Assembly (NCBI GenBank): GCA_041650295.1
Contig: JBAZLM010000001.1
Location: forward strand, 128,318-192,317
Source: Candidatus Omnitrophota bacterium
GTDB lineage: Bacteria > Omnitrophota > Gorgyraeia > Gygaellales > Profunditerraquicolaceae
DNA length: 64,000 nucleotides
Direction: 5' to 3'
Below are positions 44,397 through 64,000 of the stretch, piece after piece. The notes beneath the pieces are model-generated. The model ran no database searches, had not been told where the DNA came from, and was given only the letters and a program-made list of their open reading frames with translations. How positions within the stretch are numbered: the first letter of the stretch is position 1; every line of letters starts with the position of its first letter. Made by a program: the position numbers and the translations under genes.

Positions 44397-44427
44397 TAGG
44401 AAGGTAAATATAATAAGGAGAAGAAAG

Positions 44428-44613: not shown

Positions 44614-44627
44614 TGGAGAGGGTAAAG

Positions 44628-44807: not shown

Positions 44808-44820
44808 CAAAGGGGAGATT

Positions 44821-45171: not shown

Positions 45172-45186
45172 GAATAGGAGGAAGAG

Positions 45187-45489: not shown

Positions 45490-45519
45490 TTGGAAGTGTT
45501 TTTTGAGGAGGGATTAAAT

Positions 45520-45852: not shown

Positions 45853-45908
45853 TAAAAGAAATGATACTATTGTGTAAATTTTAATACTTTGCGTAGGAGG
45901 CGATTAAT

Positions 45909-46271: not shown

Positions 46272-46283
46272 TAGGAGGAAGAG

Positions 46284-46607: not shown

Positions 46608-46630
46608 GTTAAATAAGAAAGGACGTTAAA

Positions 46631-47932: not shown

Positions 47933-47942
47933 TGAAATATTA

Positions 47943-48284: not shown

Positions 48285-48305
48285 ATTTGGTCAAAGGAGT
48301 ATGTT

Positions 48306-48995
48306 GTGATGTTTAAAGAGAAAGCACAAGCAATTACAGAATTAGCAATCTTGGGGGTCTTGGTGATTGTAGCTTTTTCATTTTTAATTAGTTATAGTGA
48401 AAAGCTAAATCGCCAACAGGCAAATATGCAACAAACCTTTCGAGCGGCTCTTGATGAGGCAAAAAAAATTAATAATTCTATTAATTATACAAAAAAAGTT
48501 TTTTCGCGTATGCCTAGTATTGAAAATCCTAAAGAGTTAGGTCAATTGGAGACTTTTAATGACAATGCTACTCTTTTGTGGAGTGATGGTATGGATACTG
48601 AGAATGTTTATTATTTTGATCCTGTAAGTAAAGAATGGGTTTTATCAGGCAGGTATGTACTCCCTGGGACATCGAAGTATCAATTTAATGATGCTGTTAA
48701 AACAATACCTTCTACCCCTAATGAATATGATGAATATGGAAACTTGATCCCTCCTTCTATGGATAATAAAGGAGTAATTTCTACTACGGATAGCTCTGTT
48801 CATGATACTAAAGCCACTACTATTTTAAGTCAAAAAAGTGTTTTAGGGGATGCAAATATGACTACGGAAAAAAAGTTTGAGGCTACAGACACGGTGACTA
48901 CAACTGTAAATATTGACGGACAAACTTATACTTTTTCTCATTCTTTAGGAGAGCATGGTAAATATTCTTCTGTGGGAGCAGGGGTCAAGCGTTAA
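48306..48995 (+). CDS. TadE/TadF-like pseudopilin (229 aa)
   Basis: MMFKEKAQAITELAILGVLVIVAFSFLIS is a TadE-like N-terminus, followed by a large periplasmic domain. Confidence 0.45.
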   Translation: MMFKEKAQAITELAILGVLVIVAFSFLISYSEKLNRQQANMQQTFRAALDEAKKINNSINYTKKVFSRMPSIENPKELGQLETFNDNATLLWSDGMDTENVYYFDPVSKEWVLSGRYVLPGTSKYQFNDAVKTIPSTPNEYDEYGNLIPPSMDNKGVISTTDSSVHDTKATTILSQKSVLGDANMTTEKKFEATDTVTTTVNIDGQTYTFSHSLGEHGKYSSVGAGVKR

Positions 48996-49007
48996 GGAGG
49001 GTTAATT

Positions 49008-49310
49008 ATGAAAAATAAAGCTCAGGCCACCTTAGAATTTACGGTAGTTTTTATAATCATGGTTGCTTTACTTATAGGTATGGTTAAATTATGGAAAATG
49101 TCTAGTGATAGGATTATTAGTCGCCAGGTAGAATATAATGCTAGCCGCCTAAAAGCAGGGGAGAAAGACGCTACTTTAGTAGCGCCTCTGAAGGTAATAA
49201 AAAAAGGTAGTGGTAGTGGTAGTTATGCTGGTAAAGCTGGTGGCTATGGAGGTGGTAGTAGTGGTTATAGTGGTGGTGGTTATGGTCCAGTAGGTGGAGG
49301 TGGATGGTAA
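49008..49310 (+). CDS. TadE-like pseudopilin with Gly/Ser-rich tail (100 aa)
   Basis: MKNKAQATLEFTVVFIIMVALLIGM; C-terminal GSGSGSYAGKAGGYGGGSSGYSGGGYGPVGGGGW. Confidence 0.45.
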   Translation: MKNKAQATLEFTVVFIIMVALLIGMVKLWKMSSDRIISRQVEYNASRLKAGEKDATLVAPLKVIKKGSGSGSYAGKAGGYGGGSSGYSGGGYGPVGGGGW

Positions 49311-49320
49311 GTGTGGAGGA

Positions 49321-51081
49321 ATGATGTTTTTTTCTTGGTATATTAAAAATAGACATTTTAAGCAAGGGAACAGTTTTTCTGGTCAGATTGTTCCTTTTTT
49401 ATTGGTAATTATAGTTGTTTTGCTAATTGCTGCAGTATCTGTGATTCAAATAGGAAGAGTCTCTATTGATAAAACTGCTACCGCTAATGCCGCAGATGCG
49501 GGTTCTTTGGCTGCTGCTTCCAGTTGGGCTTCAGCACTTAATAGCTTAACTTTTGATAATGTTAATTTATTTTCTGGGTTTGATCTTAGGAAGTATTTAG
49601 TTAACGCTACTCTTATTCCCCAAGCAAATTATTATTTAGCCTTAACTGCACTTTATGTCAAAGCTTCAGAAAAAGAAGCGATGGTTGGTGCCGCTTTTAT
49701 GGCGGGCGGCATGCTACCGATTCCTTGTGTAGAATTAGCGGCAATTCTTGCTGCAGAATGGTATATGACTCAAGCGATGATGTATACAAATAAGGCATTG
49801 AGTAATTTACAATCTTATTTACAACTTTTATATTTTATAAAATTAGTGACAGAAGAATGTTATAATAACCAACAACAAGTGTATTTAGATATCAAAAATA
49901 GGATGGATGAAGCTTATCGTAATGCTAAAAAGGATGGGTTTCGTTTTGCTTTTATGAATAGCGGAGTAACTAGTAAACTTTCTAAAAAACAGGGAGATGA
50001 TTTCAATTTGTTTTTAGATAAAACAATTGCAGCAGGAGTTGATGCTGGTCAAGATACTATTCAGGTTGATTGGAAGGATAAAATGGGGAGAATTCATACT
50101 GTTTCAGCTACATTAGATTTACCAAATATAGAGTCTTATATGCTTTGGCGTTCCCAGCTTACTTATAATGAGATGCAATCATTATATGATGGAATTATAA
50201 ATAAAGTAAATAAATCGATATCAAAATTAAATAAAGCAATTTTAGAGTTAGGAATAACCGTTGTTGCATTGGGTGTGGCTGCTATAATTACTGCTGTGAT
50301 TTGTGTTTTGTTTTGCATTCCTCCATTTGGTACGATTGCAGCGGAAGTCATGAGCGCTGCTAATACGTGGACTAAAGTAGCTATTGCCCTAGGAATAACG
50401 GCATATATATCTACCGTGGTAGCAATGTTTAATACTTTTGAGGAGGATGAGGCTTCTTTGGAAAATATGGTAAATAATACTTTAATTGATCGGTCTTGGG
50501 ACAGTGGTCAATTAGTTGGCACTGCTTTTATCGATAAGTCTACATATTTGGATGTTCCTGCAACTTTAACTAAGGAGCAATTTTTAGCAGAAGTTTCCGG
50601 CGGACCTTGGAGTGGTTTATCTGAGTATCTAGCAATAACTTATCCTTATGGGGCAATGACATTGCAAGATGTAATGATTATTGCTATTGAAAGGGTTGAT
50701 TTAAAACCTGGTAAGCTATGGCAAGCAAAATTATGTACAACTCAGACTCATCCGGTGATAGATATTAGTTCTGGTGCGACGAAGAATGTTGTTACTACTA
50801 GCTGTTCTAGTTCTAAATTTGATGGTGGGAGTATGAAGATGAATTTTGCGATGTTTCCAGACCCTCCACATGCTTTGGACTGGCTAACTAATCTTGCCGG
50901 AAGCAGGACTACTTTAGAAAATGTTGCGGATGTTATAGAAGAGCGTAATCTTACATGGGAGTGGTATGCTGATACTGGCTGGGACCCTGTAGTTGTTCCA
51001 CCAACACCTGAAGATATTGAAAAAGCGTTAAGAGATTCTGTTGATGCCAATTATTCTCCACAGATTATTGCTACAGAGTAA
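49321..51081 (+). CDS. TadG-like pilus assembly protein (Tad_N domain)
   Basis: RBS GGAGG; FSGQIVPFLLVIIVVLLIAAVSVIQIGRVSIDKTATANAADAGSLAAASSWA matches the TadG N-terminal domain; large C-terminal domain; the track ORF begins at 49294. Confidence 0.55.
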   Translation: MMFFSWYIKNRHFKQGNSFSGQIVPFLLVIIVVLLIAAVSVIQIGRVSIDKTATANAADAGSLAAASSWASALNSLTFDNVNLFSGFDLRKYLVNATLIPQANYYLALTALYVKASEKEAMVGAAFMAGGMLPIPCVELAAILAAEWYMTQAMMYTNKALSNLQSYLQLLYFIKLVTEECYNNQQQVYLDIKNRMDEAYRNAKKDGFRFAFMNSGVTSKLSKKQGDDFNLFLDKTIAAGVDAGQDTIQVDWKDKMGRIHTVSATLDLPNIESYMLWRSQLTYNEMQSLYDGIINKVNKSISKLNKAILELGITVVALGVAAIITAVICVLFCIPPFGTIAAEVMSAANTWTKVAIALGITAYISTVVAMFNTFEEDEASLENMVNNTLIDRSWDSGQLVGTAFIDKSTYLDVPATLTKEQFLAEVSGGPWSGLSEYLAITYPYGAMTLQDVMIIAIERVDLKPGKLWQAKLCTTQTHPVIDISSGATKNVVTTSCSSSKFDGGSMKMNFAMFPDPPHALDWLTNLAGSRTTLENVADVIEERNLTWEWYADTGWDPVVVPPTPEDIEKALRDSVDANYSPQIIATE

Positions 51082-51095
51082 CTAAGGAGGGGGTA

Positions 51096-51911
51096 ATGAG
51101 AGTTTTCAAATCAAGCATTATAATTATGGGGTTAATTTTGGTGTTTTGTTTAAAATGTTCTTGTCTTTTGGCAGCTACAAAAAGCATTCCTTTGCCAGCA
51201 GATTCAGTAAAGATTTCACAAGAAGATTCATCTTTGGGACCATTTAAATCTACTACCGAAGTTTACCAGTCTTTTCTTTCACAAAAAAAATTGGAAGAGT
51301 TTTTCAAAAAAGAAATGAAGCTGGCTGGCTGGGAAAAAGATAAGAAAGGAATTTTTGTTAAAGATGATTATAAGATTTCGATTATTTTTGGTCCGGTGAA
51401 AACTTCTAAAGGAGCAACTTTATTTTTAATCAATAATCATAAAGACATAGACCAACAGCAGTTGCTTGCAGAACGTAAGATAAAACCAGATAAGTTAAGT
51501 TTTATGCCTATCTATCCGCAGAGTGTACAGAATTTTCTTTGGGATACTCCTACAGGGGTTATGGGTAGTTATGAAACAACTAGTAGTATTTATGATGCAG
51601 TTTTTTTCTATAAAAGTTCTATGTTAAATTATGGGTGGACACTTTATAGTGAAATACCAATTAAGGAAACAACGGTTAAGGAACCAATAGATGAAAGAAA
51701 TAAAATGCCGACGATTACTAGGGTTGCTACATTAAGATTTAATAAAAAAACAGGGGAATCTTGTTTTTTAATGTTTAATAGTATTTCTGGTAACCTTGAT
51801 CAAGTGGCTTTATTAAAAGGAGAGCAGCTGGTAGATCCTAAAAATGAAGCTATATCACATAAAACAAATATCAGTGTAGCTTATAATGAAGGTAAGAAAA
51901 ATAATAAATAA
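51096..51911 (+). CDS. secreted hypothetical protein (271 aa)
   Basis: Signal peptide MRVFKSSIIIMGLILVFCLKCSCLLAA; no known motif. Confidence 0.3.
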   Translation: MRVFKSSIIIMGLILVFCLKCSCLLAATKSIPLPADSVKISQEDSSLGPFKSTTEVYQSFLSQKKLEEFFKKEMKLAGWEKDKKGIFVKDDYKISIIFGPVKTSKGATLFLINNHKDIDQQQLLAERKIKPDKLSFMPIYPQSVQNFLWDTPTGVMGSYETTSSIYDAVFFYKSSMLNYGWTLYSEIPIKETTVKEPIDERNKMPTITRVATLRFNKKTGESCFLMFNSISGNLDQVALLKGEQLVDPKNEAISHKTNISVAYNEGKKNNK

Positions 51912-52056
51912 AGCACAATCAACCCTAGAGTATATTGCCGTAATCCTAGCGATTATTGGCGTATTCGTTGCTATGCAAAAATATTATCAACGTAGCTTAC
52001 AGGGTACATTTCGCCAAGCCGGTGATGCAATTGGTGGTGGCGAACAATCAGACTAG
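51886..52056 (+). CDS. flp: Flp-family pilin (56 aa), overlapping the 3' end of the previous gene
   Basis: MKVRKIINKAQSTLEYIAVILAIIGVFVAMQKYY..; not in the track (<60 aa). Confidence 0.5.
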   Translation: MKVRKIINKAQSTLEYIAVILAIIGVFVAMQKYYQRSLQGTFRQAGDAIGGGEQSD

Positions 52057-52081
52057 TTTTAATAAATATTAAATAAAAAAT

Positions 52082-52927
52082 ATGCTTATTTTGCTCAGTA
52101 TCTTAATTTTAGCTTCAGTTATTTTAGTCTCAATTAGTCTTTTGCCTTTTTTTGTGCAAAAGGTTCAAGTTTGGCAAAAGAAGCAGGAAGTCGTAGTTGC
52201 TGAAAAGATGGATGAAATGTTTTATAATAAAAATCCTCGTAATATTGCCATGCTTTATATTATTCTTCCGTTTGTTTTTGGTATAGCCGGATATTTCTTA
52301 CTACAGTCTATTATTTTTGCTATTTTTGGGATATTTATTGGTTTAGTGATCCCAAATTTAATTTTAAAGATGCGTTATAAAAAGAGGCTTAAAATGTTTA
52401 ATAATCAGCTTTTGGATGCGATTAATATGCTTTCTAGCTGCTTAAAGGGTGGTTTAAGTCTTTTACAAGGTTTTGAGGTTTTAGTTGAAGAGATGCCTGC
52501 TCCGATAAGTGAAGAGTTTAGTTTGGTGGTTAAAGAAAACAAGATGGGGATTCCTTTGGAGGAAAGTTTAGTACGTTTGAATAAAAAGATGAACATGGAA
52601 GAGTTGGGTTTAGTAATTAATGCGCTTTTGGTTGCTCGGGAGACTGGAGGTGAGTTGACCAAGGTCTTTAGTCGTTTGATTATTACAATCAGAGATAATC
52701 GTAAACTTAAGGAAAGCATCCAAACTCTTACCTTGCAGGGTAGGCTCCAAGGAGCAATTATGTCTTTTTTGCCAATTGTTTTTGTGGCTTGGGTTCTTTC
52801 GGTAAATAAGAATCATTTTGATATTATGATGTCAAGTGATATTGGTAGAATGCTTTTAATCGGAGCAGTAGTATTGCAAATTGTGGGAATGATTTTAATT
52901 AAAAAGTTTAGTACAATTAAAATATAA
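52082..52927 (+). CDS. tadB: Flp pilus assembly protein TadB (T2SSF domain)
   Basis: TM-cytoplasmic T2SF domain-TM architecture; VARETGGELTKVFSRLIITIRDNRKLKESIQTLTLQGRLQGAIMSFLPIVF. Confidence 0.7.
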   Translation: MLILLSILILASVILVSISLLPFFVQKVQVWQKKQEVVVAEKMDEMFYNKNPRNIAMLYIILPFVFGIAGYFLLQSIIFAIFGIFIGLVIPNLILKMRYKKRLKMFNNQLLDAINMLSSCLKGGLSLLQGFEVLVEEMPAPISEEFSLVVKENKMGIPLEESLVRLNKKMNMEELGLVINALLVARETGGELTKVFSRLIITIRDNRKLKESIQTLTLQGRLQGAIMSFLPIVFVAWVLSVNKNHFDIMMSSDIGRMLLIGAVVLQIVGMILIKKFSTIKI

Positions 52928-52929
52928 AA

Positions 52930-53787
52930 ATGGAAATATTGTTATTTGTATTTGTTATTGCTGCAGTTGCCTTGATTACTTGGGGCGCGTTGCTTCATCA
53001 GCAAAACGCGCCTCTGCGCATGCCTAGTCAAATTGTAACCACTAAGTTTAAAAAATCCGGTCCAGATTTTGATAAAATTTTACCGACTCGGTCCTTATTA
53101 GATAGAACCGGGATGTTTGTTAGCATTAAAAATTCTTTAGATAATGCTCATATTAGTCTTTCTCCAGTAGCATTTTTTAATATTAAGATACTACTTTGTA
53201 TCTTGTTGACTGTGGTTCCAGGACTAGTGATGGGAAAAGCGGAGCCACCGTTAATTATTATTGGTTTGGGAATAGGATATTTTGGACCAGATTTTTATTT
53301 AAAACGTAAAATTAGTGAGCGCAAGTATTTGATTGCTCGTGGGCTTCCGGAAACAGTTGATCTTTTAAGTTTGTGTATTGAGGCTGGTTTAGATTTTATA
53401 AGCGCGGCTAGATGGGTAATTGATAAAACTCCGCGTACTCCAATGACTGAAGAGCTGGCCTTTGTGTTGGAAGAGGTTAAATGGGGTAAATCGCGAGTTC
53501 AAGCGCTTAAAGATATGGCACGTAGGATTAATGTCTCTGAAATGAGTTCATTTGTGCAAACGATTATTCAAGCTGAGCGTATGGGCACTCCAGTAGCAGA
53601 AGCATTTGCTATTCTTTCTGAAGATGCGCGTGCGCAAAGATTTCATCGTGGTGAAAGAATTGCTTTACAGGCGCCTATTAAGATCCTTCTTCCGCTAATT
53701 TTCTTTATTATGCCAGTAATTGGTATTGTTATTGGTGGTCCAATCTTGTTGCAATTTATGTCAGGTGGTTTTACCGGTCTTAAATAA
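52930..53787 (+). CDS. tadC: Flp pilus assembly protein TadC (T2SSF domain)
   Basis: LSLCIEAGLDFISAARWVID..AERMGTPVAEAFAILSEDARAQRFHRGERIALQAPIKILLPL. Confidence 0.7.
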   Translation: MEILLFVFVIAAVALITWGALLHQQNAPLRMPSQIVTTKFKKSGPDFDKILPTRSLLDRTGMFVSIKNSLDNAHISLSPVAFFNIKILLCILLTVVPGLVMGKAEPPLIIIGLGIGYFGPDFYLKRKISERKYLIARGLPETVDLLSLCIEAGLDFISAARWVIDKTPRTPMTEELAFVLEEVKWGKSRVQALKDMARRINVSEMSSFVQTIIQAERMGTPVAEAFAILSEDARAQRFHRGERIALQAPIKILLPLIFFIMPVIGIVIGGPILLQFMSGGFTGLK

Positions 53788-53805
53788 TTTTTAAATATTT
53801 GCTTA

Positions 53806-53846
53806 AAAGGGATGTTTCATCTAAATGAAACATCCCTTTTTTTGTT
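53806..53846 (+). terminator. rho-independent terminator after tadC
   Basis: AAAGGGATGTTTCAT-ctaa-ATGAAACATCCCTTT followed by T7. Confidence 0.7.
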
Positions 53847-54112
53847 TTTGATCAAATTTGCCTGAATTTTTTGATTAGAATATTTAAGCCTAAATCCACA
53901 ATTTAATTATCTGTATTTTCATGAATTAGACTATAGCTATTAGTTTAGACAGATTATTTTTATATCTGCCTTGCTAGAGATTTTTGTATTAAACAGGCTT
54001 TTTTCAGTAGCTTAATAAGTTAAATTTACCATTTTATACAACATAGTAGTTAGTCATCAAATTGAGCAGATAATTGTTCATTGGCAGCAAAATGAGATAT
54101 TGGTGTTATTGT

Positions 54113-54163
54113 TGAACTGAAGTTATTATTGAACTGAAGTTATTATTGAACTGAAGTTATTAT
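54113..54163. repeat. 3 × 17-bp tandem repeat (TGAACTGAAGTTATTAT)
   Basis: Three perfect tandem copies seen in sequence. Confidence 0.8.
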
Positions 54164-54685
54164 TGTCTTGGCATATTACATTTATAGCTGTGCTTATTAG
54201 AATGACCTTATTTACGTTTGCTGGACCTTCTGCCATAAGTATTATTACAGGTTAATATGATTCATCTGTGCCGTTCAAAAGATAAGAATTTTACTTATAA
54301 AGGAAGTAATAGTGAGCATTCTTCTAAGTTAAAATAGTAAATTTATTTTTTGTTTAACTAAGAAATGTTGCAATAATAAAAGTAATTGTCCAGTCTAAAG
54401 TGTAGATATTTAATTGTCCAGTCTATTTCTAAAATTTGTCCAATCAGGTTTCAATGGTTTTAAGCTTGATAATCAAGAAAATATGATATAAATAGTTTAA
54501 TGGATTAAAAAATTTACTTTGAATTTTAGTTATGTTGGAGCTTATTTTGATGTTCTTTAGGATTTGTAATTAAGCTGCTGAAGTATTTTAAGGCACTAAG
54601 CAATTAAATTTTTGGGTAAGATTGGGGTCAAAGTTTGATAGTTTTTGCTAGAAAGAAAGCGTTACCAAAATAACCGTTTTTCTAC

Positions 54686-54714
54686 TTGACAGCGTCTATC
54701 TGAGGTGTTATATT
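54686..54714 (+). promoter_or_regulatory. σ70-like promoter TTGACA-17 nt-TATATT
   Basis: TTGACA at 54686-91 and TATATT at 54709-14; about 20 nt upstream of the putative riboswitch. Confidence 0.45.
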
Positions 54715-54734
54715 TGAGTGTAAGTTGAAAAGGT

Positions 54735-54860
54735 CTTAAAAGTAAACTTAGAGTAATCTAAGGACACAAAGCCACGGATCCTTAATCCAAAAAGCAGTCT
54801 CAAGGATAGCCGGGTTGCCAGGCCGACGAGAGTTGGAGTAATGACAACTCGGTTTTATTG
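54735..54860 (+). promoter_or_regulatory. candidate c-di-GMP-I (GEMM) riboswitch with intrinsic-terminator expression platform
   Basis: GNRA-capped hairpin CUUAGA-GUAA-UCUAAG (54747-62), immediately followed by GGACACAAAGCC (cf. GEMM GGACGCAAAGCC). P3-like hairpin GGAUCCUU...AAGGAUAGCC, then AGCCGGGUUGCC (cf. GEMM AGCGGGGUUACCG). Terminator GAGUUG-gaguaauga-CAACUC+GGUUUUAUUG (54830-58). Confidence 0.45.
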
Positions 54861-54992
54861 TAGAGTTTCACAAATGATTTAGAAAAGTATTTAATAAGAA
54901 ACCTGATGCCCATGAAAAGAGAAATAAAAAATCTAAAAGATTTTGGGGTAAGGGGAAAAATTTATTTTTTATTTATTAGTAATAGGTAAAAG

Positions 54993-57900
54993 ATGAACAA
55001 CAAAAAGCACCAGACAGAAGATCGGATTAAGCAACCGAAGCGAGAATTCAAGTCAAGTTTTAAGACCTGGATTCGCGTGGTTGCTTTTGTTATTTCTGCT
55101 ATCTTTTTACCAGAGCAAGTTGCTCAAGCCGTAGAATACGATTGGCGGGTAATCTGGAATAAGCCTGCAGCCGGAAGCATTGCCTCTACTTCTTTGAAGA
55201 ACTTAGCTAGCATTGATACCGCTTTAGCCATTCGCAATATTTTGAAGGATATCGCCAATAAGCCAATCACAGCGATTAAGGTTTCGTCCAATCTGACCAT
55301 TAATTTGGACAAACCCTTAAAAATGTCCAATCAAAAAATAGAAGAAATTACTGAATGGTTGAAGGGTAAGCCTTGCGGAACTAAAGCCCTTTATGATTAT
55401 CTAAATTATGCAGGAATTCAAGCTCCTGAAGGCGACATTGCTATTATGGCTTTGACTGTGGACATTCTTAATGATGTAGTCAAGCCGGAAGGTAATCCTA
55501 CGGTTATCAAAAATTCTCTTTATGCCCTTTCTCAAGCGGCCAAATTCTTTGGAAGCGACCTTTATCCAGTAAAAATTCAAAGCAATCGAGAATTAGGCAG
55601 CTTAACTCCTTTTATTGCACATTTAAATTATGACCACTTTATTTTGGTTACTCGGGTTACTGAAGATAAGGTTTACTATAGCAATGAGCATAAAGAAGAG
55701 TTTTTCCCAAAAGATACATTTGCAACCAAATTTACTGGTTATGCCTTAACTAATATTTTACCGGCAGATTTAAAGACTTTAGAACCTGCTGAAAGCAAAA
55801 AAGTTCTTGGTGCTTGGTCCTCATCAACTTCTTCTAGTGGTAGATCTAGCTCTGGCTATAGATCTAGCTCAGGTTATAGTTCTCGATCTAGTTATACTAA
55901 TAACTGGCGTTCGGGAACTTCTTATTACTCTCGACAATCTTTTGTTAGTCATTATAGGCCACAAATAGCAGCTGCAATGTCTAAGGTTCTTGGGGGCAGT
56001 AAGCAGGCTATGAGAGTTGCTTTAGTAGCTGCTATTCCTGTTGTGGCTATTTCTGCTATTCCTGGCGGTAAATTTTTAGGTACTTTTACTAAAAGACTTG
56101 CTTTTAATCTTATTGTGGGGGAAGCTACTTTGCAACTCAGTAGTTACATAAACACTGATAAATTTGTTGGATTTAAAACTAAGGGCGATTTAGGTATGCA
56201 TGCTTTGATATTAGCGTCATCCGCTTTATCAGCTGGGGCGACTAATATTTCTACAAAATTTTCAAGTGTTAAACTTTCTGGTCCTTTTAATCCTCCTGCC
56301 ATCTCTAATCGTATGGGCGTAATGAGCAGATCTGCCCGGATGTTAAATTTTGGCAATTCTGTTGTTAGGACTCTGCCTAATTTTGCTAGCAAGGTGTCTT
56401 ATTACGGATTAACCGGAGCCAATACATTTTTAGTTACTGGCACTGCGTTAGAAGGACTAGGTGGTCAGGGACCGAACCTACAATCGATGAGCAAGAATTA
56501 TCTTACAGGTTTAGCGGTTGGCTCAGCTAGCGGTGCGGCTTCTTATCTACTTTCTCCTAATTCAGTTGGAATAGCAAAATTGTCCAAAGCATCCTCTACT
56601 GTAACAGGGATTGTCCCCAATAAAATTACAACTGTTTCCGGTAAATTAGGCGAATTTGTTACGCGTGGGAAACTTGCCTCTGAAATAGGGAAAGAATTAA
56701 TTGGCGTGGGAGTTGTCTCTAGTGCTTCCGGATTAATAAGCGCTGGAGGTACCCTAACTTATAACGCAATCAAAGGAAATAAGTTAAGAGAAAATTTATT
56801 GCGCAATACTTTAGGCGCAGCTGCAGCACCTCTTTTAATTTATGGTTCAGCAAAAATCATACCTGTAGTGAAATCAATTACCACTCCTGCTTCTAGTAAA
56901 ATTGCAGAGAGCTTTAACAATAGTAAGTTTCTTCCTAAGCTGGGTAAAGTTGTTTCTTTTGGTCAAGCTAATTCTCCGGTAATATTAAGGCTGGCGGGTT
57001 CTTCTGCTATTACTGGAAGTATGGGGTTTGTAGGCACTTTAGGTTATAATTTGGTTAATAGAAAAGATAGAAAATGGAATGAAGATTTACTTTATAATAC
57101 TTTAGGGGCAGCAGCGATTCCTTTATTGATTTATGGCTCAAGCAAAGCAATGTCTTTAAACAAAAGACTCTTTTCTCCTGTGAATTTAAAAATTACTATC
57201 CCCAATATAATTACTTTAACAGCTATTGACACTAAAGCGGCTTACGCTTTAGATAGAAAATATTATGAAGGCAGTCTGGCAAAAGAAAGTTATGGTTCTG
57301 GGCCTTTTGTTGGAGTGTTTAAAAATGTGCTATTGGCTCCAGGTAGACAGATTTTAAGTATTAAATCTGATTTTGCTCCAGTAGCACAACATCTAACTAA
57401 TGTAGAAGCTAATGTCTTCAATGATTGGGCGGCGGATAAAGGGCTGGTAGGTGCAAGTTTAGCCTATACGGCAGGATTTTCAAGAAGTTGGCTTAATGTA
57501 ACTTCTTTAGCTACACCGATTAGATCTATTGCTCGTTTAGATCAAACCGTTAAAGACTTTTATACTTTGAGTGCGAATTTAAGCAATGCTGCTAATAATG
57601 ATAAGGCTACAAAAGCAGATAATATTAGATTAGTTGATGCCGCTTATTTAGTCGGTAACGTTATGGGATCTTATACTGCATTTAAAGGAATTGGCAGCGG
57701 TTTAACTAAGCCCGCCAATCTTACTAAACCAGCAGAGCATTTAAAATTTAGTACAAATGTTTTAAATAACGTTGGAGGCATATTTAATACCAGTGCTACT
57801 ACAGTTATTGCTAACGCATCGATAGGTGCGATGTTGCCCTTAATGGGACAAAAAAATGCCGTAGGCGTTTTAAGCTATACTGAATTGTTTAATAGTTTGA

Positions 57901-60900
57901 AAAGTTTAGCTTATAATACTGATACTATTGCTAGAAGCTCCTTTGCTGTTTCTACGATTTTTAAGGGTTTAGGAGCTTTGAATAATCCTAAATTAACTAA
58001 AGCGGTAGTAATAGGAAGTGGGAGCAGTTTTGCGCTTGGAGGAGCAGCAGTAGCAGTTGCAACTAATGCAAAAAATAAAACTACTGATCAAAAGAAAATA
58101 GCTAATTGGAATAAAGTTTCTAAAATTGGTACAGGAGTTATGGCGGTTAGTGCAGTAATTTTAGCGTCACAGTTTGTTAGGGGTGTAGACGCTGTATCAG
58201 CAAAAGCAAAACCGACAACATTAGTTGGTGTAGGCGCAGGAGGTGTTGCGGGGGGCGCCGGTATGTATTGGGGGGCAAAGAAAATAGGAGAAAAAACAAC
58301 TTGGGGGCAAAAACATCAGGGTATAGTTAATGCTACGATGAATGCTGGGCTGTTCATAGCCGGAATGGGTGGATTATTATTAACTCGAGGTCTTTCTAAA
58401 CCACTAGTTAATAAGATTCAGGTTTGGGATAAGGGGATTTCACAAACTCAGCGTGTCCAAAAAATTTACAGACTCCCAGTATCTACTGAAATTAAAACCG
58501 CGTTTGCAAGCAAAGGTTTAGGGGCTTTAAAATTAATTAATTCTGGAGTTACTACAGCTGGTAGTGCCTGGTCAATAGGCACGGCATGGTATGGATTTAA
58601 TCGGGGACTATTTACTCCTGCTGTTGAATATTTAAGTTTTGTCTTAGGGGATCGATCTGAAAAAGATTCTAGAGCATGGAAAGGTTATGCATCGTTCTCG
58701 ACCCCAAGATACTGGGCGGAGCGTAAATATGTAGGTGCTAGTGGATTGTTAATCGGTTCAGTGTATAAAACTATAAAATTAGCCTCTAAGCATTATGGGA
58801 CATTAGATAAAAGTAGCGGTGCTTGGAATGGATTAAAAGAAGCGTTCAAAGAGCAAAAAATAAAGACTTGGGATAAATATGTTAATTTTGGTAATAAGTG
58901 GGCAGGAAAAATAACTCCTAAAATAGCTAAGTTTGGTGGTTATGCTTCTGGGGTTACTGGAATTGGTCTCCAGACTCTTGCGCATACTTTTGGCACTTTA
59001 TTTATGGTAATGGCTCCGCTTGCTCCTGTGTTAGAGGGGGCAAGCTTTTTGTCAGATAGATTCCTACAATCTCAATATAATAGTCGATTAGAGAATTGGT
59101 TTCATAATTTTACTACAGGTGCTTTTTCCAATGATGATACCCTTTTAAGATGGAAAGAATTAGGTTTTATTAGAGGAAAAGATGCAAAAGACGTGTCTTT
59201 GGTAGCTAAAACAAGATTCGATAAAATCGGTTCTTCTTTACAAATGTTTGCTACTGGGGTGAGTGCTGGACTTTTTGGAGTAGAACCCGTACAAATACTT
59301 GATGTAGATGGAAGCCTAAGGACAGTACAAATGCCGAAGGCCATTAGTTTTAAGGATAAGGATAGAACTTATATTAATCCTGATGGCGATAAAATAGTTT
59401 TAAAACAAGGTGCTGTTTCAATGTTGACCTCTTGGCTTAGTCCTGTTACTAAAGATGGTAAGCTTAAAATTAAGACAGAGGAAGGTGGTTTTGTTAAGCG
59501 TACATTAAAGACATTTGATAACCAAGCTTTAATGTTTGGCGCGACTTTAGCTATTTTAGCTCCTCTGGCCGGTCCAGTTCTTACTAACATTAAATCATTT
59601 AATTTAGGACAAGGTCTGAGGGCTTTTCAATACGGAGCTAGTCAAACCTTTGGTTTAAAAGGACTGTCAGATTGGGCTAAACGCGGGCGCACAAAAGTTG
59701 GATCAAAATTAAAGAATCTTTTTACTAATAAGGTGCACATGGCATTTCAAGGAAGCATAGAAGAAATTAATGAACAAAATGTGCAACTTTTTACTTCTGT
59801 TCCGGTAAGTTTAGTTGGTCCTATAGTTACACTCTTTGGTGTAAGTCCAACAATGGCACTTGCTATTCAAGGATTTGTTGAAGAAATTACTCAAGAGTTG
59901 GTTGGTGATATTGACGGAGCAGGCGGTGCTGTTAGAAGTACCGCGACAAGTTTTTGGGCTTCCTGGGGAAATAATAATCCGGTAGTTAGCAGGATAACTT
60001 ATGTTGATGCAAAAAAAGATGCAAAACCTTTAATAGACGTAGCTAAATTAAATGCTCAGAATCCAGAATCTTTAGAAGCTTTGGCTGGTTTAAAAGAAGG
60101 CGATAGGGTTACCTTAACTCATGAAGACGGATTTGTGCGAGATTTTGTGGTCGATGCAAATTGGGGTAATTTTATGAATACTCGCGCGCAAGCCGTAAAT
60201 TATCAAAGAGGCTTAAATAGTGGGGCAGTCACTGTTCCAACTTTGGTAGCGGCGATGCGTAGTTCGGATTCTATTAAGAAGAATGCTGCGAGTATTGCTT
60301 TAGCAAGTAATTTGTCGGCTGACCAAGCGATACAGATTATGCGTCCGGCAGATTATGAACATGTGTTGACTTTTAAGGCACCCGGTAGTAGTGCTCCAAT
60401 AAGCGTTCCAGCTAGCGACCTTATGGACCAGGTGGTCGAAAGAATGGCTTTTGAGCAAGATTTTGCTAGCAAGGTAGAAAGTAATTTTAAGAGCTTGGAT
60501 GTAACTACCCCGAAAGCTGTGACATTAAAGACAAATAATTTAGAGATAATTGCTTTTTCTGGCGATCAAACTAGCAGTAAGGTTACTAGTGATTATATAC
60601 AAGAAGTTGGTTATGTTCCGATGGGTAATTTTAAATATGGTAATAAAAATGTAAGGGTGAACGTAGTAGAAGGTATGCATCAAGCGGTGAGCAAAACGAT
60701 GGGTAATGCTCAGGCTGGATTAGGTGCGGGCGGTATATCAGCAGATGGTGTTTATGATATTTTTGTTGATGCTGCAGAGTATGCCGCAGAGCTAAAGAAA
60801 AATCCTGGTGCAAAAAATAATCCGTTAAGTTTAAATACAGTAAGTCATGAATTTAAGGAGTTGGTTAGTTTTGAACGAATAGTAAGAGGATATCAAAAAA

Positions 60901-63900
60901 GTTTAGGCATACAATCAAGTGGAATTGCTATTGAGCGCTTACAACAAGCCTCTGGCATAAATGAAAAAGCTGGTGCGGAGGTTGATTTAATTGCTGCTTC
61001 AGATGGAAATCAGATTAAAGCTCCAAACGCGGCTCCCGTTGCTAAACAACCGTTGTTTATTCGCGTGATGCAGAATGCGCACAGCAATGCTCCAGAGATT
61101 GCTCCAGCGGTTTCTGGCTCGGTAACTCCAAGCAATATTTTACCTATTACTAGAGCGGTTAATAAAGGCGTGGTAGTGGATTTAATTGCTGCTTCAGATG
61201 GAAATCAAGTTAAAGTTCCAGCTGCGGTTACTCCGGTTGCCAAACAAAAAGAGATCAATGATGCCGCTTTAGAGATGCGTTTAGCTGCGGCTAGAGCTTT
61301 GCAGACTAATGATCAAGCAGATTTTGATGAGGCATCAGGATTAAAATATAAAGTTAGTAAAATGCAGGAAGATGAAATTTATCGACAAGGTTTAGCTAAG
61401 ATGGGTGTTGAGCTTAAAGATAGAATAAACTTTTTCTATAATCGTCGTCAGATGGCTACCGCAAAAGCTAAATATGTTGAAGATAATAAGAAAGCATATG
61501 GGGCTGATTTTATTAAAAAGAAAGACGCTTTAAATGAAAGAGTTGCAACAATTAAGGCAATGACGCCAACTCAATATAAAGATTATCGAGCAGATATTAA
61601 AACTCGATTAGAAGGGCTTAGTCAGAAAAAAGACTCAACGGTAGAAATGCCTACTATGGATGAGATAGAAGATCTTAAATATACAGCTCAAGCTGCCAGA
61701 GTTAAATCATTAGAAAAGCAAATTAAGGAAACAGAATCAGAATTTAAAAAATTTAAGACTGGTAAGATTAAGTCTAATGAAATTCGCGAAGATATTATTA
61801 ATAAAGTATCAGAAAAGAAAAGATTAACCAGAGACTTTATAAGTGATTTGCTTAATGCGGGCAAAGTTAATTTAGGGACTGGAGAAATTATTGGTTATCC
61901 ATTTACACTTAATGATGCGCTAAATTATGAGATTTCAAAAAGTGTTTCAAAAAGTGGTAAGAATATTATTTATAATTTAGTTGATGGACCCGAAAATATA
62001 AAAATTTCAGTGCCTAAGGTAATTGCAGAAATTGATGCAACAAAAGATGCAACTATAGCCAAGCGATCTGAATTAGGTCCGGTGACCGAAACTGGCCCGC
62101 CTTCAGCTTTAGAAAATGCTAAAACAGTTTTAGTTAAAGCGCAAGCCGAAGCGGTAAGATTGGCTGCCATTTCTGATGGCAAGCAAGAAGACCTAGTATA
62201 TAGGAAAGGTTTATTAAAAGCAGCTAAGCAAACCAATGATCCTGCGAAAATTAATCGAGCTCAGAATGCTTATGATGCTACAAAAATTAAAGCTGATGTT
62301 GCGATTGACGATTGGCAAGGAAATCAATTAATATTATTTAGCGCGCAAGAAAAAGTTGATGCATTAGAAGCTCAAGCTACCGTAATTGCCGCCCCTCTTT
62401 CTACAGAAGTAAATAATATCCCACAAACAGAAGTAACCCAGGCTGCACAGCTAAATTCTAATAAAGAATTACTTAAAGAATTAGGAATCAAAGAAGGAAC
62501 CCGCACTTATAATCGTTTATTAAATTCTGACAACGAATTACTCTATGAGAAAATAAAATTCTTAACGGATAAAACTCAAGTTAACCTAGGTACTCGTAAT
62601 GGCAATGTACCAATAAGTTTATTACGTTATAGCTTAAAAACTTTGCAAGATCGCGCTACGAAGTTAAATGAATTTGGTTTGGCTCTTAATACTACTACGG
62701 TAAGATTAAAAACTAATGAAGAGATTCAAGCGTATAAAGATAGAGCTTTGCCAAAAACTGAAATATCGGAAGTTTCTGCTAAGCCGGTAACGGTTGCAAC
62801 TGCTCCAACTTTCACTAAATTATCGTTCCCAGGGACAACCCCGCAGGCATCACAAGCAGCTCCTACAGAAGAAGCTCAATCAGTTTCAGTGAAGTCAGAA
62901 GGCCAAAAAGCTTTAGATAGAGCAAACAAGATTTTAGGCATAGAAGATTCGGAACAAGATAAATCAGAGGGCCAGAAAGCTTTAGATAGAGCAGATAGAG
63001 CTTTAGGTGTTAGCTCAAGGGGGCAGGAAGCTCAGCCGGCGGAAACAAAAGCTCCAGCCACACCCGCAACTGTAACAGCTCCTGCGGCTCAAGCTCCAAC
63101 ATTAATTCCAGAAAAAGCAGCTCTTCTTCAACAGGTAGCTCCAACTTCCACTAAATTATCATTTCCAGAAACACCATCAACATCAGCTAAACCGGTGGAA
63201 GCAAAAGCTCCGGCACAGGCGCAAGCAGCTCCTGTCGAAGCTAAAGATGCCTCTTTTGTTTATCCTTCTGTAAAAGAAATCTTTCCTGATTCAGAATCAG
63301 CAACTACGCAAGAAGATCCTCAAGCTGCTATTGCTGCTAAAAAACAACAGGCTGCTGCTGAGGCCTCTAAAGCTGCAGAAGAAGAATTTTATAGAGTTAT
63401 AAATAAAGGCATTGAGCAAGAACAAAAGATTGCTGCCGAGCAAGAAGCAGCTAAATCTGCAACAGCTCCTGTGGCTCCTGCGGCTCAACCATCTGTTGAG
63501 AAGAATGTCGTAGAAGAAGCCCAACCCGCTAAGCAATTGTCACAAAAAGCTCTTAGCAGAATCGAAAAGATTAATAAAGACCTTGAGAAACTAAAGAAGA
63601 CAAGAAATGAGTTTGCCGCCAAAGCAACAGCAGCTAAAGAATATAATTCCGTGAAAGAATTTTTAAAAGCTCCCCTTTTAGCACAGAATGCATATAACAA
63701 TTATCAAGAGGCTCAAATCAAGAAAGGCAAGAGTGGTGAAATACGAGATCAGGCGTATTTAGATAAAAGAATTGCAATACTCCATAAAGATGCGAATTTC
63801 TTACAAAGATTATTTGCCACTAAAATAAATTATGATAAAAAAGCTGAAAAAATTGCCAGACAAATACGAGCCTTAGAGGGTGAGCAAAGAGCATTAGAAA

Positions 63901-64000
63901 ATAGCGGTAGTATAGTTAAATCTCCTAACTGGACAAATCAAGCCTGGGCGCAATTAAAGGCAACTTTTTACGTTGCGTTAGTTTCGGAGAACCCTAAAGT
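54993..64000 (+). CDS. giant membrane-anchored protein, >3000 aa, 3' end beyond window: N-terminal TM anchor, papain/peptidase-C39-like domain, Ser-rich linker, repetitive G/A/S/T-rich core, coiled-coil repeat-containing tail
   Basis: Continuous + strand reading frame from ATG 54993 to the window edge, verified by hand at several points; it is absent from the ORF track because it has no in-window stop. TM segment TWIRVVAFVISAIFL. C39-like motifs KGKPCGTKALYDYLNYAG and IAHLNYDHFILVTRVTEDKVYY. Linker SSSTSSSGRSSSGYRSSSGYSSRSSY. Internal repeats LL(R/Y)NTLGAAA(A/I)PLLIYGS(A/S)K, VDLIAASDGNQ(I/V)K.P...PVAKQ and SEGQKALDRA. Confidence 0.65.
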   Translation, partial: MNNKKHQTEDRIKQPKREFKSSFKTWIRVVAFVISAIFLPEQVAQAVEYDWRVIWNKPAAGSIASTSLKNLASIDTALAIRNILKDIANKPITAIKVSSNLTINLDKPLKMSNQKIEEITEWLKGKPCGTKALYDYLNYAGIQAPEGDIAIMALTVDILNDVVKPEGNPTVIKNSLYALSQAAKFFGSDLYPVKIQSNRELGSLTPFIAHLNYDHFILVTRVTEDKVYYSNEHKEEFFPKDTFATKFTGYALTNILPADLKTLEPAESKKVLGAWSSSTSSSGRSSSGYRSSSGYSSRSSYTNNWRSGTSYYSRQSFVSHYRPQIAAAMSKVLGGSKQAMRVALVAAIPVVAISAIPGGKFLGTFTKRLAFNLIVGEATLQLSSYINTDKFVGFKTKGDLGMHALILASSALSAGATNISTKFSSVKLSGPFNPPAISNRMGVMSRSARMLNFGNSVVRTLPNFASKVSYYGLTGANTFLVTGTALEGLGGQGPNLQSMSKNYLTGLAVGSASGAASYLLSPNSVGIAKLSKASSTVTGIVPNKITTVSGKLGEFVTRGKLASEIGKELIGVGVVSSASGLISAGGTLTYNAIKGNKLRENLLRNTLGAAAAPLLIYGSAKIIPVVKSITTPASSKIAESFNNSKFLPKLGKVVSFGQANSPVILRLAGSSAITGSMGFVGTLGYNLVNRKDRKWNEDLLYNTLGAAAIPLLIYGSSKAMSLNKRLFSPVNLKITIPNIITLTAIDTKAAYALDRKYYEGSLAKESYGSGPFVGVFKNVLLAPGRQILSIKSDFAPVAQHLTNVEANVFNDWAADKGLVGASLAYTAGFSRSWLNVTSLATPIRSIARLDQTVKDFYTLSANLSNAANNDKATKADNIRLVDAAYLVGNVMGSYTAFKGIGSGLTKPANLTKPAEHLKFSTNVLNNVGGIFNTSATTVIANASIGAMLPLMGQKNAVGVLSYTELFNSLKSLAYNTDTIARSSFAVSTIFKGLGALNNPKLTKAVVIGSGSSFALGGAAVAVATNAKNKTTDQKKIANWNKVSKIGTGVMAVSAVILASQFVRGVDAVSAKAKPTTLVGVGAGGVAGGAGMYWGAKKIGEKTTWGQKHQGIVNATMNAGLFIAGMGGLLLTRGLSKPLVNKIQVWDKGISQTQRVQKIYRLPVSTEIKTAFASKGLGALKLINSGVTTAGSAWSIGTAWYGFNRGLFTPAVEYLSFVLGDRSEKDSRAWKGYASFSTPRYWAERKYVGASGLLIGSVYKTIKLASKHYGTLDKSSGAWNGLKEAFKEQKIKTWDKYVNFGNKWAGKITPKIAKFGGYASGVTGIGLQTLAHTFGTLFMVMAPLAPVLEGASFLSDRFLQSQYNSRLENWFHNFTTGAFSNDDTLLRWKELGFIRGKDAKDVSLVAKTRFDKIGSSLQMFATGVSAGLFGVEPVQILDVDGSLRTVQMPKAISFKDKDRTYINPDGDKIVLKQGAVSMLTSWLSPVTKDGKLKIKTEEGGFVKRTLKTFDNQALMFGATLAILAPLAGPVLTNIKSFNLGQGLRAFQYGASQTFGLKGLSDWAKRGRTKVGSKLKNLFTNKVHMAFQGSIEEINEQNVQLFTSVPVSLVGPIVTLFGVSPTMALAIQGFVEEITQELVGDIDGAGGAVRSTATSFWASWGNNNPVVSRITYVDAKKDAKPLIDVAKLNAQNPESLEALAGLKEGDRVTLTHEDGFVRDFVVDANWGNFMNTRAQAVNYQRGLNSGAVTVPTLVAAMRSSDSIKKNAASIALASNLSADQAIQIMRPADYEHVLTFKAPGSSAPISVPASDLMDQVVERMAFEQDFASKVESNFKSLDVTTPKAVTLKTNNLEIIAFSGDQTSSKVTSDYIQEVGYVPMGNFKYGNKNVRVNVVEGMHQAVSKTMGNAQAGLGAGGISADGVYDIFVDAAEYAAELKKNPGAKNNPLSLNTVSHEFKELVSFERIVRGYQKSLGIQSSGIAIERLQQASGINEKAGAEVDLIAASDGNQIKAPNAAPVAKQPLFIRVMQNAHSNAPEIAPAVSGSVTPSNILPITRAVNKGVVVDLIAASDGNQVKVPAAVTPVAKQKEINDAALEMRLAAARALQTNDQADFDEASGLKYKVSKMQEDEIYRQGLAKMGVELKDRINFFYNRRQMATAKAKYVEDNKKAYGADFIKKKDALNERVATIKAMTPTQYKDYRADIKTRLEGLSQKKDSTVEMPTMDEIEDLKYTAQAARVKSLEKQIKETESEFKKFKTGKIKSNEIREDIINKVSEKKRLTRDFISDLLNAGKVNLGTGEIIGYPFTLNDALNYEISKSVSKSGKNIIYNLVDGPENIKISVPKVIAEIDATKDATIAKRSELGPVTETGPPSALENAKTVLVKAQAEAVRLAAISDGKQEDLVYRKGLLKAAKQTNDPAKINRAQNAYDATKIKADVAIDDWQGNQLILFSAQEKVDALEAQATVIAAPLSTEVNNIPQTEVTQAAQLNSNKELLKELGIKEGTRTYNRLLNSDNELLYEKIKFLTDKTQVNLGTRNGNVPISLLRYSLKTLQDRATKLNEFGLALNTTTVRLKTNEEIQAYKDRALPKTEISEVSAKPVTVATAPTFTKLSFPGTTPQASQAAPTEEAQSVSVKSEGQKALDRANKILGIEDSEQDKSEGQKALDRADRALGVSSRGQEAQPAETKAPATPATVTAPAAQAPTLIPEKAALLQQVAPTSTKLSFPETPSTSAKPVEAKAPAQAQAAPVEAKDASFVYPSVKEIFPDSESATTQEDPQAAIAAKKQQAAAEASKAAEEEFYRVINKGIEQEQKIAAEQEAAKSATAPVAPAAQPSVEKNVVEEAQPAKQLSQKALSRIEKINKDLEKLKKTRNEFAAKATAAKEYNSVKEFLKAPLLAQNAYNNYQEAQIKKGKSGEIRDQAYLDKRIAILHKDANFLQRLFATKINYDKKAEKIARQIRALEGEQRALENSGSIVKSPNWTNQAWAQLKATFYVALVSENPK

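Follow-up and report, generated by a model that had tools for sequence, protein, structure and literature searches.

How is a bacterial gene of more than 3,000 codons switched on, and how is its product exported and processed? The question is raised by a stretch of 64,000 nucleotides from Candidatus Omnitrophota bacterium (GenBank assembly GCA_041650295.1, contig JBAZLM010000001.1, positions 128,318 to 192,317), here called the window, near the end of which a giant open reading frame (ORF) begins at position 54993 of the + strand, beside a Tad pilus operon, and is still open at position 64000. In Omnitrophota, as in other ultra-small symbionts or predators, genomes are small and giant genes can take up a notable part of them, and to our knowledge nobody knows how their proteins are regulated, exported and processed, nor is there an isolate in which genetics could be done.

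Full-length Omnitrophota giants with an N-terminal C39 peptidase domain, or in others an S8 domain, near predicted signal peptides were described by West-Roberts et al (2023, bioRxiv 10.1101/2023.11.21.568195), who found these peptidases to be the only identifiable domains in the N-terminal regions, speculated that C39 may cut the giant protein into several pieces, and left other substrates open. In a 2026 preprint (10.64898/2026.06.07.730766), a PF03412 group is among the two largest architecture clusters of long Omnitrophota proteins, and Tad cassettes flank such proteins. Seymour et al (2023, PMC10066038) regard giant ORFs together with Tad complexes as signatures of symbiosis and recall a 3-fold rise of giant-ORF peptides in attached Velamenicoccus cells. 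None of these three papers mentions a riboswitch or cyclic di-GMP (c-di-GMP), and our literature search found no report linking the giants of Omnitrophota (Omnitrophica) with either.

In this paper we propose that the giant gene of the window is a riboswitch-gated unit whose product consists of a conserved, exported N-terminal head, with a C39 peptidase that cuts its own protein, and a hypervariable body; we put the probability of this model as a whole at about 0.6. Binding of a cyclic dinucleotide would cause the aptamer to hold one strand of its helix P2, block a terminator and so allow the giant gene to be transcribed. A Sec signal peptide would bring everything behind it to the outer side of the cytoplasmic membrane, and the C39 peptidase (Cys128/His215) would cut a double-glycine-type site after Ala274 (L-12, E-8, V-4, G-2, A-1), by which the export-and-processing head would be detached from the body. 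The envelope would then keep or display the body, perhaps helped by the Tad-type machinery encoded next door, and host or prey cells would be contacted through it. The riboswitch, the single double-glycine-type site at the end of the head and the decoupling of head and body are not reported in the literature searched.

The giant open reading frame and its family

Read from the ATG at 54993, the + strand frame passes through 3,002 sense codons to 64000 with zero stops, as the original prediction had claimed, and its absence from the list of ORFs is explained by the lister, which omits ORFs running off the source. An in-frame TAA at 54987-54989 makes this ATG the earliest possible start, and homologues begin at the equivalent position. 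At a GC content of ~37%, with ~6.8% stop codons, our arithmetic gives p ~1e-92 for a random open run of this length. The same gene is present on an 18-kb contig in the ENA (ERZ27247363 k141_1424993, here L001), where it is again cut at the contig end, with 3,134 residues called. Over 53788-55000, from the intergenic region to the start codon, L001 and the window are 98.6% identical, the difference being chiefly a single copy of a 17-nt repeat; the two head proteins do not differ at all. Scans of JGI metagenomes for the continuation of the gene, exact with the last 41 nt and at protein level with the last 300 residues, gave zero matches.

A search of 5.8 billion proteins returned 28 matches, almost all from metagenome-assembled genomes of Omnitrophota, with lengths of 1.7-5.2 thousand residues; they are mostly partial, are annotated as 'cysteine peptidase family C39 domain-containing' and in most cases carry a precomputed PF03412 assignment. 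Their similarity to the window protein is limited to residues 1-274, at 50-78% identity. When GTDB species representatives were scanned with a head alignment, 94 related places were found, of which 80 loci were kept, the top head identity being 81%. The alignment of 77 heads, on which the family frequencies below are based, shows extreme conservation over ~275 residues. We are nearly certain that the ORF belongs to this family and represents the front part, 3,002 codons or more, of an Omnitrophota gene for a giant envelope protein. It comes from this phylum, encodes a C39 domain close to a signal peptide at the N-terminus and lies beside pilus genes; it is a new member of a published kind. The original prediction, of a giant protein of the surface or envelope that has a papain- or C39-like peptidase near its N-terminus and stands beside Tad genes in an ultra-small bacterium, is supported by the C39-annotated Omnitrophota homologues. 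It had also called such proteins largely uncharacterised; the C39-headed architecture has already been published for Omnitrophota.

The sole relative verified as complete is P0002, with 3,935 residues. Its gene (on JAPLLZ010000020.1) is followed by ORFs of 1,830 and >3,126 residues with overlapping stop and start codons, and the conserved head may open an array of giant ORFs. Four shorter relatives that had appeared complete were rejected as artefacts: in L037, L046 and L019 the giant ORF is broken only by masked N-runs, and in L076 by a poly-A frameshift (~1590-1625). Short 'complete' versions of such giant genes in databases are likely to be artefacts.

The riboswitch and its expression platform

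An aptamer of the GEMM-I (c-di-GMP-I) class lies on the + strand at 54729-54828 (Rfam match 54731-54822), ~170 nt upstream of the ATG and therefore outside the segment covered by the original prediction, which does not include it. Its score with RF01051 is 59.5 bits, where the gathering threshold is 35, and the match is full length (model positions 1-87 of 87). With RF03167 (c-di-GMP-I-GGC) the window scores 56.6 bits against a threshold of 59; all seven homologous loci scanned with Rfam have a match to this clan-mate at the equivalent place, with scores of 61-69 bits that are slightly above those for RF01051. A regular-expression search for the riboswitch core missed most cases, the window included, and was replaced by our own covariance model, R1, which was built from eight aptamers and run against the window and 81 loci. 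R1 gives the window aptamer 107.9 bits; of the 79 loci that could be assessed, it finds an aptamer in 74, ahead of the C39-headed gene and on its coding strand. The distance to the start is within 204 nt in 70 loci, with a mode of 155-170 nt; in some others the aptamer is 1.2-3.5 kb off and a gene for a signal-peptide protein lies between, so that aptamer, signal-peptide gene and giant gene would form an operon there.

Across 83 distinct aptamer sequences, in an alignment fitted to the model and therefore favouring the structure, 98.3% of cells are paired and compensatory changes are seen in 13 of 18 pairs; none of 500 shuffles comes as high, and controls with the pairing slid along the alignment are 32-47% paired. 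Control of the giant gene by the riboswitch is, in our judgement, highly probable.

The Tad operon upstream is closed by a strong intrinsic terminator at 53805-53840 (+ strand; 16-bp stem and T-run, terminator scan), and the giant gene is therefore a separate transcription unit. Between the two units lies an AT-rich spacer (53841-54640) with no blastn conservation to any relative. It contains a 17-nt tandem repeat, GTTATTATTGAACTGAA, at 54105-54165 in 3.6 copies (TRF); L001 is one copy shorter, which makes the repeat polymorphic within the population. In blastn comparisons ~850 nt are not conserved, and conservation among relatives then starts abruptly at ~54640. The stretch from TadC to the riboswitch seems to tolerate insertions; on JAPLLZ010000020.1 (L082:8932-9336) a small gene for a 23S_rRNA_IVP (four-helix-bundle) protein is found between them.

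A sigma-70-type promoter at 54686-54714 (+ strand; TTGACA, 17 nt, extended -10 with TG, TATATT; 11/12 matches) ends ~15 nt before the aptamer. In the promoter scan, 64 of 67 loci have a promoter with at least 10/12 matches at the equivalent place, against 2.7% of shuffles. Downstream, at 54809-54861 (+ strand), folding with ViennaRNA and conservation identify an intrinsic terminator that overlaps the aptamer. Its 5' arm, CCGGGTTG (CCGGGUUG), at 54810-54817, is itself the 3' strand of aptamer helix P2, and its 3' arm, CAACTCGG (CAACUCGG), at 54845-54852, is followed by TTTTATTGT (UUUUAUUGU). A 3' arm with a U-run behind it is perfectly complementary to the P2 strand in 38 of 69 loci (0.4 with a shuffled arm) and has at most one mismatch in 62 of 69 (6.1 with a shuffled arm). 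The arms also covary from locus to locus: CCGGGCUG pairs with CAGCCCGG, CCGAGCUG with CAGCUCGG and CCGGGUUA with UAACUCGG. Over 62 loci the median energy of the hairpin is -19.6 kcal/mol with the P2 strand free and -5.4 kcal/mol with it sequestered, the gap being at least 5 kcal/mol in 62 of 62.

Because the terminator and the folded aptamer are mutually exclusive, an ON switch is predicted, in which ligand binding prevents the terminator and permits read-through; we judge this logic probable, and the element would behave in the same way in vivo. A terminator that needs an aptamer strand is the usual layout of ON switches such as the pbuE adenine riboswitch. Beyond the terminator, an AU-rich leader at 54862-54992 (+ strand; ~130 nt), with a Shine-Dalgarno-like AGG at 54984-54986 next to the in-frame TAA described above, is conserved in 24-28 loci (blastn), which is more than a spacer needs, and a second regulatory element, perhaps translational, is possible there.

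The ligand can be approached through one base. In the Vc2 riboswitch G20 reads the first guanine of c-di-GMP (PMC6140456), and the equivalent base, the last unpaired one before helix P1a and a conserved G in the Rfam consensus, is G in 68 of 74 orthologues here. It is A in the window (position 54741), L001, L024, L025 and L046, and C in L077. The ligand in most relatives would accordingly be c-di-GMP, as we infer from this base. G20A is the signature of the GEMM-Ib riboswitches that sense cyclic GMP-AMP (cGAMP), and Vc2 G20A has dissociation constants of 120 nM for cGAMP and 53 nM for c-di-GMP (PMC6140456). From this single nucleotide, the window switch may accept 3'3'-cGAMP as well as, or instead of, c-di-GMP. 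The scatter of A and C within the family suggests repeated shifts or a relaxation of ligand specificity, and by putting A for G in the ligand pocket nature has set up an experiment on second-messenger specificity.

The conserved riboswitch supplies a regulatory input for giant genes: c-di-GMP, or a related dinucleotide, is a classic signal for surface attachment, and such an input fits the published rise of giant-protein peptides in attached Velamenicoccus cells (PMC10066038). Second GEMM-I riboswitches were observed in five loci (L022:76-205, L059:1477-1593, L081:7012-7115, L033:5785-5940 and L058:869-964); they precede large signal-peptide proteins (2,089, 2,504 and 722 residues), and the one in L058 precedes a Flp-pilin/TadB/TadC operon. 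From these positions the riboswitch regulon in Omnitrophota appears to consist of surface and attachment apparatus.

The conserved head and its candidate cleavage site

The head begins with an extended Sec-type signal peptide (residues 1-47; 54993-55133, + strand), recognised by hydropathy and alignments. It has a basic n-region, the h-region WIRVVAFVISAIFL and a c-region PEQVAQA|VE with an AXA site, and residues 26-47 form the single hydrophobic N-terminal segment. The family form, with WIRVVAFxxxAxF in the h-region and LPEQVAQA|VEYDW in the c-region, is nearly invariant. Cleavage at the AXA site would follow from the AXA rule, and by the positive-inside rule the N-terminus would be cytoplasmic and the remainder outside. 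The original prediction of a basic N-terminus followed by one transmembrane helix is borne out as to the basic residues and the hydrophobic segment, but the segment looks like a cleavable signal peptide (AQA|VE) and not like a stable anchor. The ~60 residues between the signal peptide and the next domain are poorly modelled by AlphaFold2.

That domain is a C39 papain-like cysteine peptidase domain (~residues 110-255; 55320-55757, + strand). A profile search and a structure prediction had been suggested as checks on the original claim of a papain- or C39-like domain with Cys...His spacing, and both supported the fold. PF03412 (Peptidase_C39) is matched above its curated cut-off (24.8 bits against 22, E 2e-5) over profile positions 46-127 of 133. 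The AlphaFold2 model of the head has pLDDT values of 79-95 (means of 10-residue blocks) over residues 121-270, and its top Foldseek matches are double-glycine C39 proteases, the first being LahT150 with its leader peptide (6mpz; E 3e-5, TMt 0.68). Further matches are the peptidase domain of PCAT1 (7n87, TMt 0.64), 3b79 (0.72) and the C39-like domain of HlyB (3zua, 0.67). Profile and model together support a C39 papain-like fold for the head domain.

The candidate catalytic residues are Cys128 (55374-55376), His215 (55635-55637) and Asn231. In a profile-to-PDB alignment His101 of LahT falls on His215, the HWNFNH of LahT on HLNYDH, and position 231 is matched by Asp117. Cys128 and His215, which are the Cys and His picked out by the original prediction, are present in all of the 77 proteins; Cys128 directly precedes a modelled helix (130-139) and is the sole cysteine in 3,002 residues, the relatives being likewise poor in cysteine. 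No ABC_membrane or ABC_tran match was obtained with Pfam within the 3,002 residues, which speaks against a bifunctional transporter of the AMS/PCAT type.

The head ends in a feature that the original prediction did not report, although it lies within the same ORF: a double-glycine-type candidate cleavage motif, L263-E-P-A-E267-S-K-K-V271-L-G273-A274 (55779-55814, + strand). The consensus of double-glycine leaders is LSxxELxxIxGG (PMC1538908), and the rule for ComA and LahT is Leu at -12, Glu at -8, Leu at -7, a hydrophobic residue at -4 and a cut at GG, GA or GS (PMC6363468). Column statistics give the family form L263-x3-E-[AS]-x2-[VI]-x-G273-A274, with L, I or V at 263 in 100% of the proteins, E267 in 90%, A or S at 268 in 99%, V or I at 271 in 99%, G273 in 99% and A, S or G at 274 in 99%; position 264 is S, T or D and position 265 is D, P or E. 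The motif agrees with the consensus at -12, -11, -8, -4, -2 and -1. Leader residues -4 to -11 are helical in the LahT complex (PMC6363468), and the AlphaFold2 head model has a short confident helix at residues 265-268. Conservation in the family collapses at residue 275, beyond which no column is conserved.

West-Roberts et al raised the idea of several C39 cut sites within a giant. This was rejected for the present family: the strict motif occurs once in each protein, that of the window included, and in ~160,000 body residues from 80 relatives it was found 3 times against 3.9 expected. As the motif is single and shows no excess in the bodies, one cut at the junction of head and body is indicated, not many. 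We give a little better than even odds that the head cleaves itself off the body after Ala274, either in cis or between neighbouring molecules, the motif being the basis of this proposal.

The hypervariable body

Immediately after the head comes a low-complexity Ser/Tyr/Arg linker (residues 275-318; 55815-55946, + strand), which contains an 18-nt repeat (55841-55883); behind it lies a G/A/S/T-rich region (residues 338-1629; 56004-59879, + strand) delimited by hydropathy, composition and self-comparison. G, A, S and T make up 35-45% of the residues from ~300 to 1650, and hydropathy shows ~7 weakly hydrophobic, possibly membrane-spanning segments in residues 338-1629. A soluble region separates this part from a Lys/Glu/Ala/Pro-rich tail (residues 2100-3002; 61290-63998, + strand), which has short repeated elements and runs off the window. 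Linker and G/A/S/T-rich region with hydrophobic repeats (put at more than 1500 residues) agree with what the original prediction had described. Its coiled-coil K/E/A tail with tandem ~60-residue repeats fares less well: the tail is K/E-rich, but the repeats amount to a 26-residue element that occurs twice, 65 residues apart (1994-2019 and 2059-2085), and a ~70-residue duplication (569-637 and 667-734), and self-comparison found no tandem array in the tail.

Pfam and NCBIfam searches of the 3,002 residues found no domain besides C39. Residues 1190-2340 have one relative in the search of 5.8 billion proteins and 19 (E <=1e-3) among 1.84 billion representatives, mostly very long proteins. Residues 1640-2030 (59910-61082, + strand) form a module common to a handful of other giant proteins, with a conserved V-x-H-E-x-x-E-L ... 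A-H-x-N-A-P signature; its fold model is of moderate confidence and has no convincing match to any solved structure. Body matches to other giant proteins reach E 3e-103.

Within the head-defined family, heads are 50-80% identical and bodies essentially unrelated. For 24 pairs with 70-80% identical heads, the median alignable fraction of the body is 0, and the window protein and L004, with heads 80% identical, share nothing detectable in their bodies. This decoupling suggests how giant proteins diversify. Other cargoes in the family include DnaJ (PF00226) in the bodies of P0005 and P0025 and PG_binding_1 (PF01471) in P0020. For such bodies the literature hypothesises that they adhere to host or prey cells or attack them (10.1101/2023.11.21.568195; PMC10066038), and the body described here may have such a role in adhesion or predation.

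Weighing the model and its alternatives

Several observations weigh against the model. On the side of the peptidase, the Pfam match covers profile positions 46-127 only and the sequence alignments stop short of the part of the profile that would hold the cysteine, so that Cys128 is assigned by its invariance and its place at a helix N-terminus, not by alignment. Position 231 varies, with N in the window protein, D in the majority of relatives and K or Q in others; the head alignment shows no evident oxyanion Gln, the residue six places before Cys128 being an invariant W122, and the motif has Ala or Ser at -7 where the consensus has Leu. Classical C39 domains act in the cytoplasm, whereas the signal peptide predicts an extracytoplasmic place for this one. 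On the regulatory side, five of the assessable loci have no riboswitch, and no genes for a cyclic-dinucleotide synthase, hydrolase or receptor were found among the window ORFs scanned. With the aptamer folded, a residual 6-bp hairpin (-7.5 kcal/mol in the window) and the U-run persist; termination may therefore only be reduced, and read-through partial.

Could the long frame be something other than one functional gene, either an assembly chimera or a pseudogene that is open by chance? Both assemblies do break within the giant gene, several related loci have masked gaps or frameshifts, and the body is nearly without relatives. Against this stand the vanishing chance of such an open frame (~1e-92), the agreement of two independent assemblies at 98.6% over 53788-55000 with identical heads, the retention of promoter, riboswitch, ribosome-binding site and head throughout the phylum, frames of >3,600 residues that stay open in relatives, and the similarity of parts of the body to other giant proteins (E as low as 3e-103). 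We find this explanation scarcely credible. A reading that leaves the gene intact makes the riboswitch real but an OFF switch, or specific for 3'3'-cGAMP in this genome. It draws on the GEMM-Ib change to A in the window, L001, L024, L025 and L046, and on the 6-bp hairpin and U-run that still form with the folded aptamer. Yet 68 of 74 orthologous aptamers keep G, and a single G20A gives bispecific and not cGAMP-selective binding (PMC6140456); the strong terminator (-19.6 kcal/mol) needs the aptamer's strand, and the residual hairpin is weak (-5.4 kcal/mol). By these modelled energies the OFF switch is the less likely arrangement, and we consider the reading as a whole quite improbable.

A further explanation denies that the C39 head cuts its own protein. 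The head would be a substrate-binding or chaperone-like domain, like the C39-like domains found in ABC transporters of type I secretion, or a protease whose substrates are other molecules, for example separate double-glycine peptides or proteins of the pilus, the envelope or the prey surface, and the ...E-A-K-x-V-L-G-A tail would be a structural C-terminal element of the C39 domain. The tail is indeed modelled confidently as part of the fold, cleavage is proposed from a sequence motif, the oxyanion Gln is not evident and the third member of the triad varies. The C39-like domain of HlyB is among the structural matches, non-proteolytic roles of C39-like domains are known (PMC6363468), and West-Roberts et al leave other substrates open. 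However, non-catalytic C39-like domains are without the Cys (PMC6363468), while here Cys128 and His215 are kept in every one of the 77 proteins, in which cysteine is otherwise nearly absent; the tail fits the double-glycine consensus at six positions (-12, -11, -8, -4, -2 and -1); and conservation ends exactly at the predicted scissile bond. A head that does not cut its own protein is, on this evidence, unlikely, and we retain self-cleavage after Ala274 in the model.

A broader proposal may be added, which we offer tentatively and regard as somewhat doubtful. A cassette of promoter, ON riboswitch, signal peptide, C39 peptidase and double-glycine site might launch hypervariable giants throughout the phylum, with its boundaries at ~54640 and Ala274 defining a recombination module and with expression tied to attachment. 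If true, the cassette would let cells swap or rapidly diversify the body that makes contact with host or prey, with no change in how it is regulated, exported and processed. The riboswitch and the ~330-residue head are each short enough for in vitro tests on synthetic constructs, without cultivation.

Comparison with known systems

With the published Omnitrophota giants the window protein shares the phylum, a very long ORF with few annotated domains, C39 close to a signal peptide at the N-terminus, a poorly conserved body with hydrophobic segments, and adjacent genes for type II secretion or Tad pili. It differs in length, the published giants having 30,000-147,000 residues while 3,002 are visible here and the complete relative has 3,935. 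SecA_DEAD is absent from the visible 3,002 residues (Pfam), unlike in giants of the 'Archaeovorin' type, and where C39 was published as possibly making several pieces, the present protein has a single double-glycine-type site at the junction of head and body and none inside the body.

The aptamer resembles c-di-GMP-I riboswitches such as Vc2 of Vibrio cholerae in its architecture, supported by covariation, and in a score above the cut-off; that class has G at the G20-equivalent, while the window has A. Further points in common are a place in the 5' leader of a surface-protein gene, as for Bc2 of Bacillus thuringiensis, which controls a collagen adhesion protein (PMC4933901), and a terminator-type platform. 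The GEMM-Ib cGAMP riboswitches (Geobacter Gs1761; Vc2 G20A) share with the window an adenine at the position that reads the first base of the ligand, which is the one determinant compared; in contrast to them, 68 of 74 orthologues here carry G, and no cGAMP synthase was seen in the window.

C39 domains of the AMS/PCAT type (LahT150, 6MPZ; PCAT1; ComA) have the same papain-like fold and H-x4-H-[FY]-[VI]-x-[LV], and a Cys at a helix N-terminus, which is also the modelled place of the candidate Cys128. These domains are fused to an ABC transporter, and the head here is not. The double-glycine leaders of AMS/PCAT substrates show the same Leu-12...Glu-8...Val/Ile-4...Gly-2-Gly/Ala/Ser-1 and a short helix before the scissile bond. 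In the giant protein the recognition motif would stand in cis, C-terminal to the protease, the 'leader' containing the protease and the 'cargo' exceeding 2,700 residues. Compared with the bacteriocin scheme of conserved leader, C39 cut and variable cargo, the proposed cassette would be a scaled-up likeness, with a cargo of thousands of residues and the protease inside the leader.

A similar working scheme is that of LapA, LapG and LapD in Pseudomonas fluorescens, in which a giant surface protein is held by its N-terminal module and cut by a cysteine protease under c-di-GMP control, LapG cutting at a small-residue dipeptide beside the N-terminal module of LapA. The likeness is one of analogy alone, with no homology. 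LapG is transglutaminase-like and separately encoded, whereas the protease here is C39 and built in; LapA has RTX repeats and is exported by type I secretion, and c-di-GMP acts there through LapD on proteolysis, not through a riboswitch on transcription.

The Tad locus and the rest of the window

The Tad (Flp, type IVc) pilus operon that the original prediction placed beside the giant gene is real. It extends over 35776-53787 (+ strand) and, by Pfam and the pilin sequences, encodes a peptidyl-prolyl isomerase, RcpC/CpaB, a secretin, a TadZ-TadA fusion, DUF192, six Flp pilins, TadE/TadG-like proteins, TadB and TadC. TadC lies upstream of the giant gene on the same strand in 40 of 54 loci with at least 4 kb upstream, and closer relatives keep the whole operon order. 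The secretin (37659-39257; T2SS-T3SS_pil_N and Secretin) ends in a TonB_C domain, which is unusual for the RcpA/CpaC type, and a 720-residue protein (39259-41421) joins a ParA/MinD-like (TadZ-type) part to a T2SSE ATPase (TadA), usually the products of two genes. The six paralogous pilins, encoded in a row at 44764-46607 and 47943-48284, have the processing motif G|QSTAEY or G|QSTLEY (G|xSTxEY). No match to the prepilin peptidase TadV/CpaA (Peptidase_A24) was obtained among the window ORFs scanned, and the gene for this enzyme may lie in another part of the genome.

Apart from these loci the window is ordinary chromosome, with a group-4 hydrogenase/complex-I-like module, Amt, PII, GSIII, GltBD, CTP synthase, PurF and two tRNAs. 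The ammonium transporter is split into two overlapping ORFs, 17988-18395 and 18260-19372, which match profile positions 2-71 and 75-399, respectively; the split is probably a frameshift or a sequencing error.

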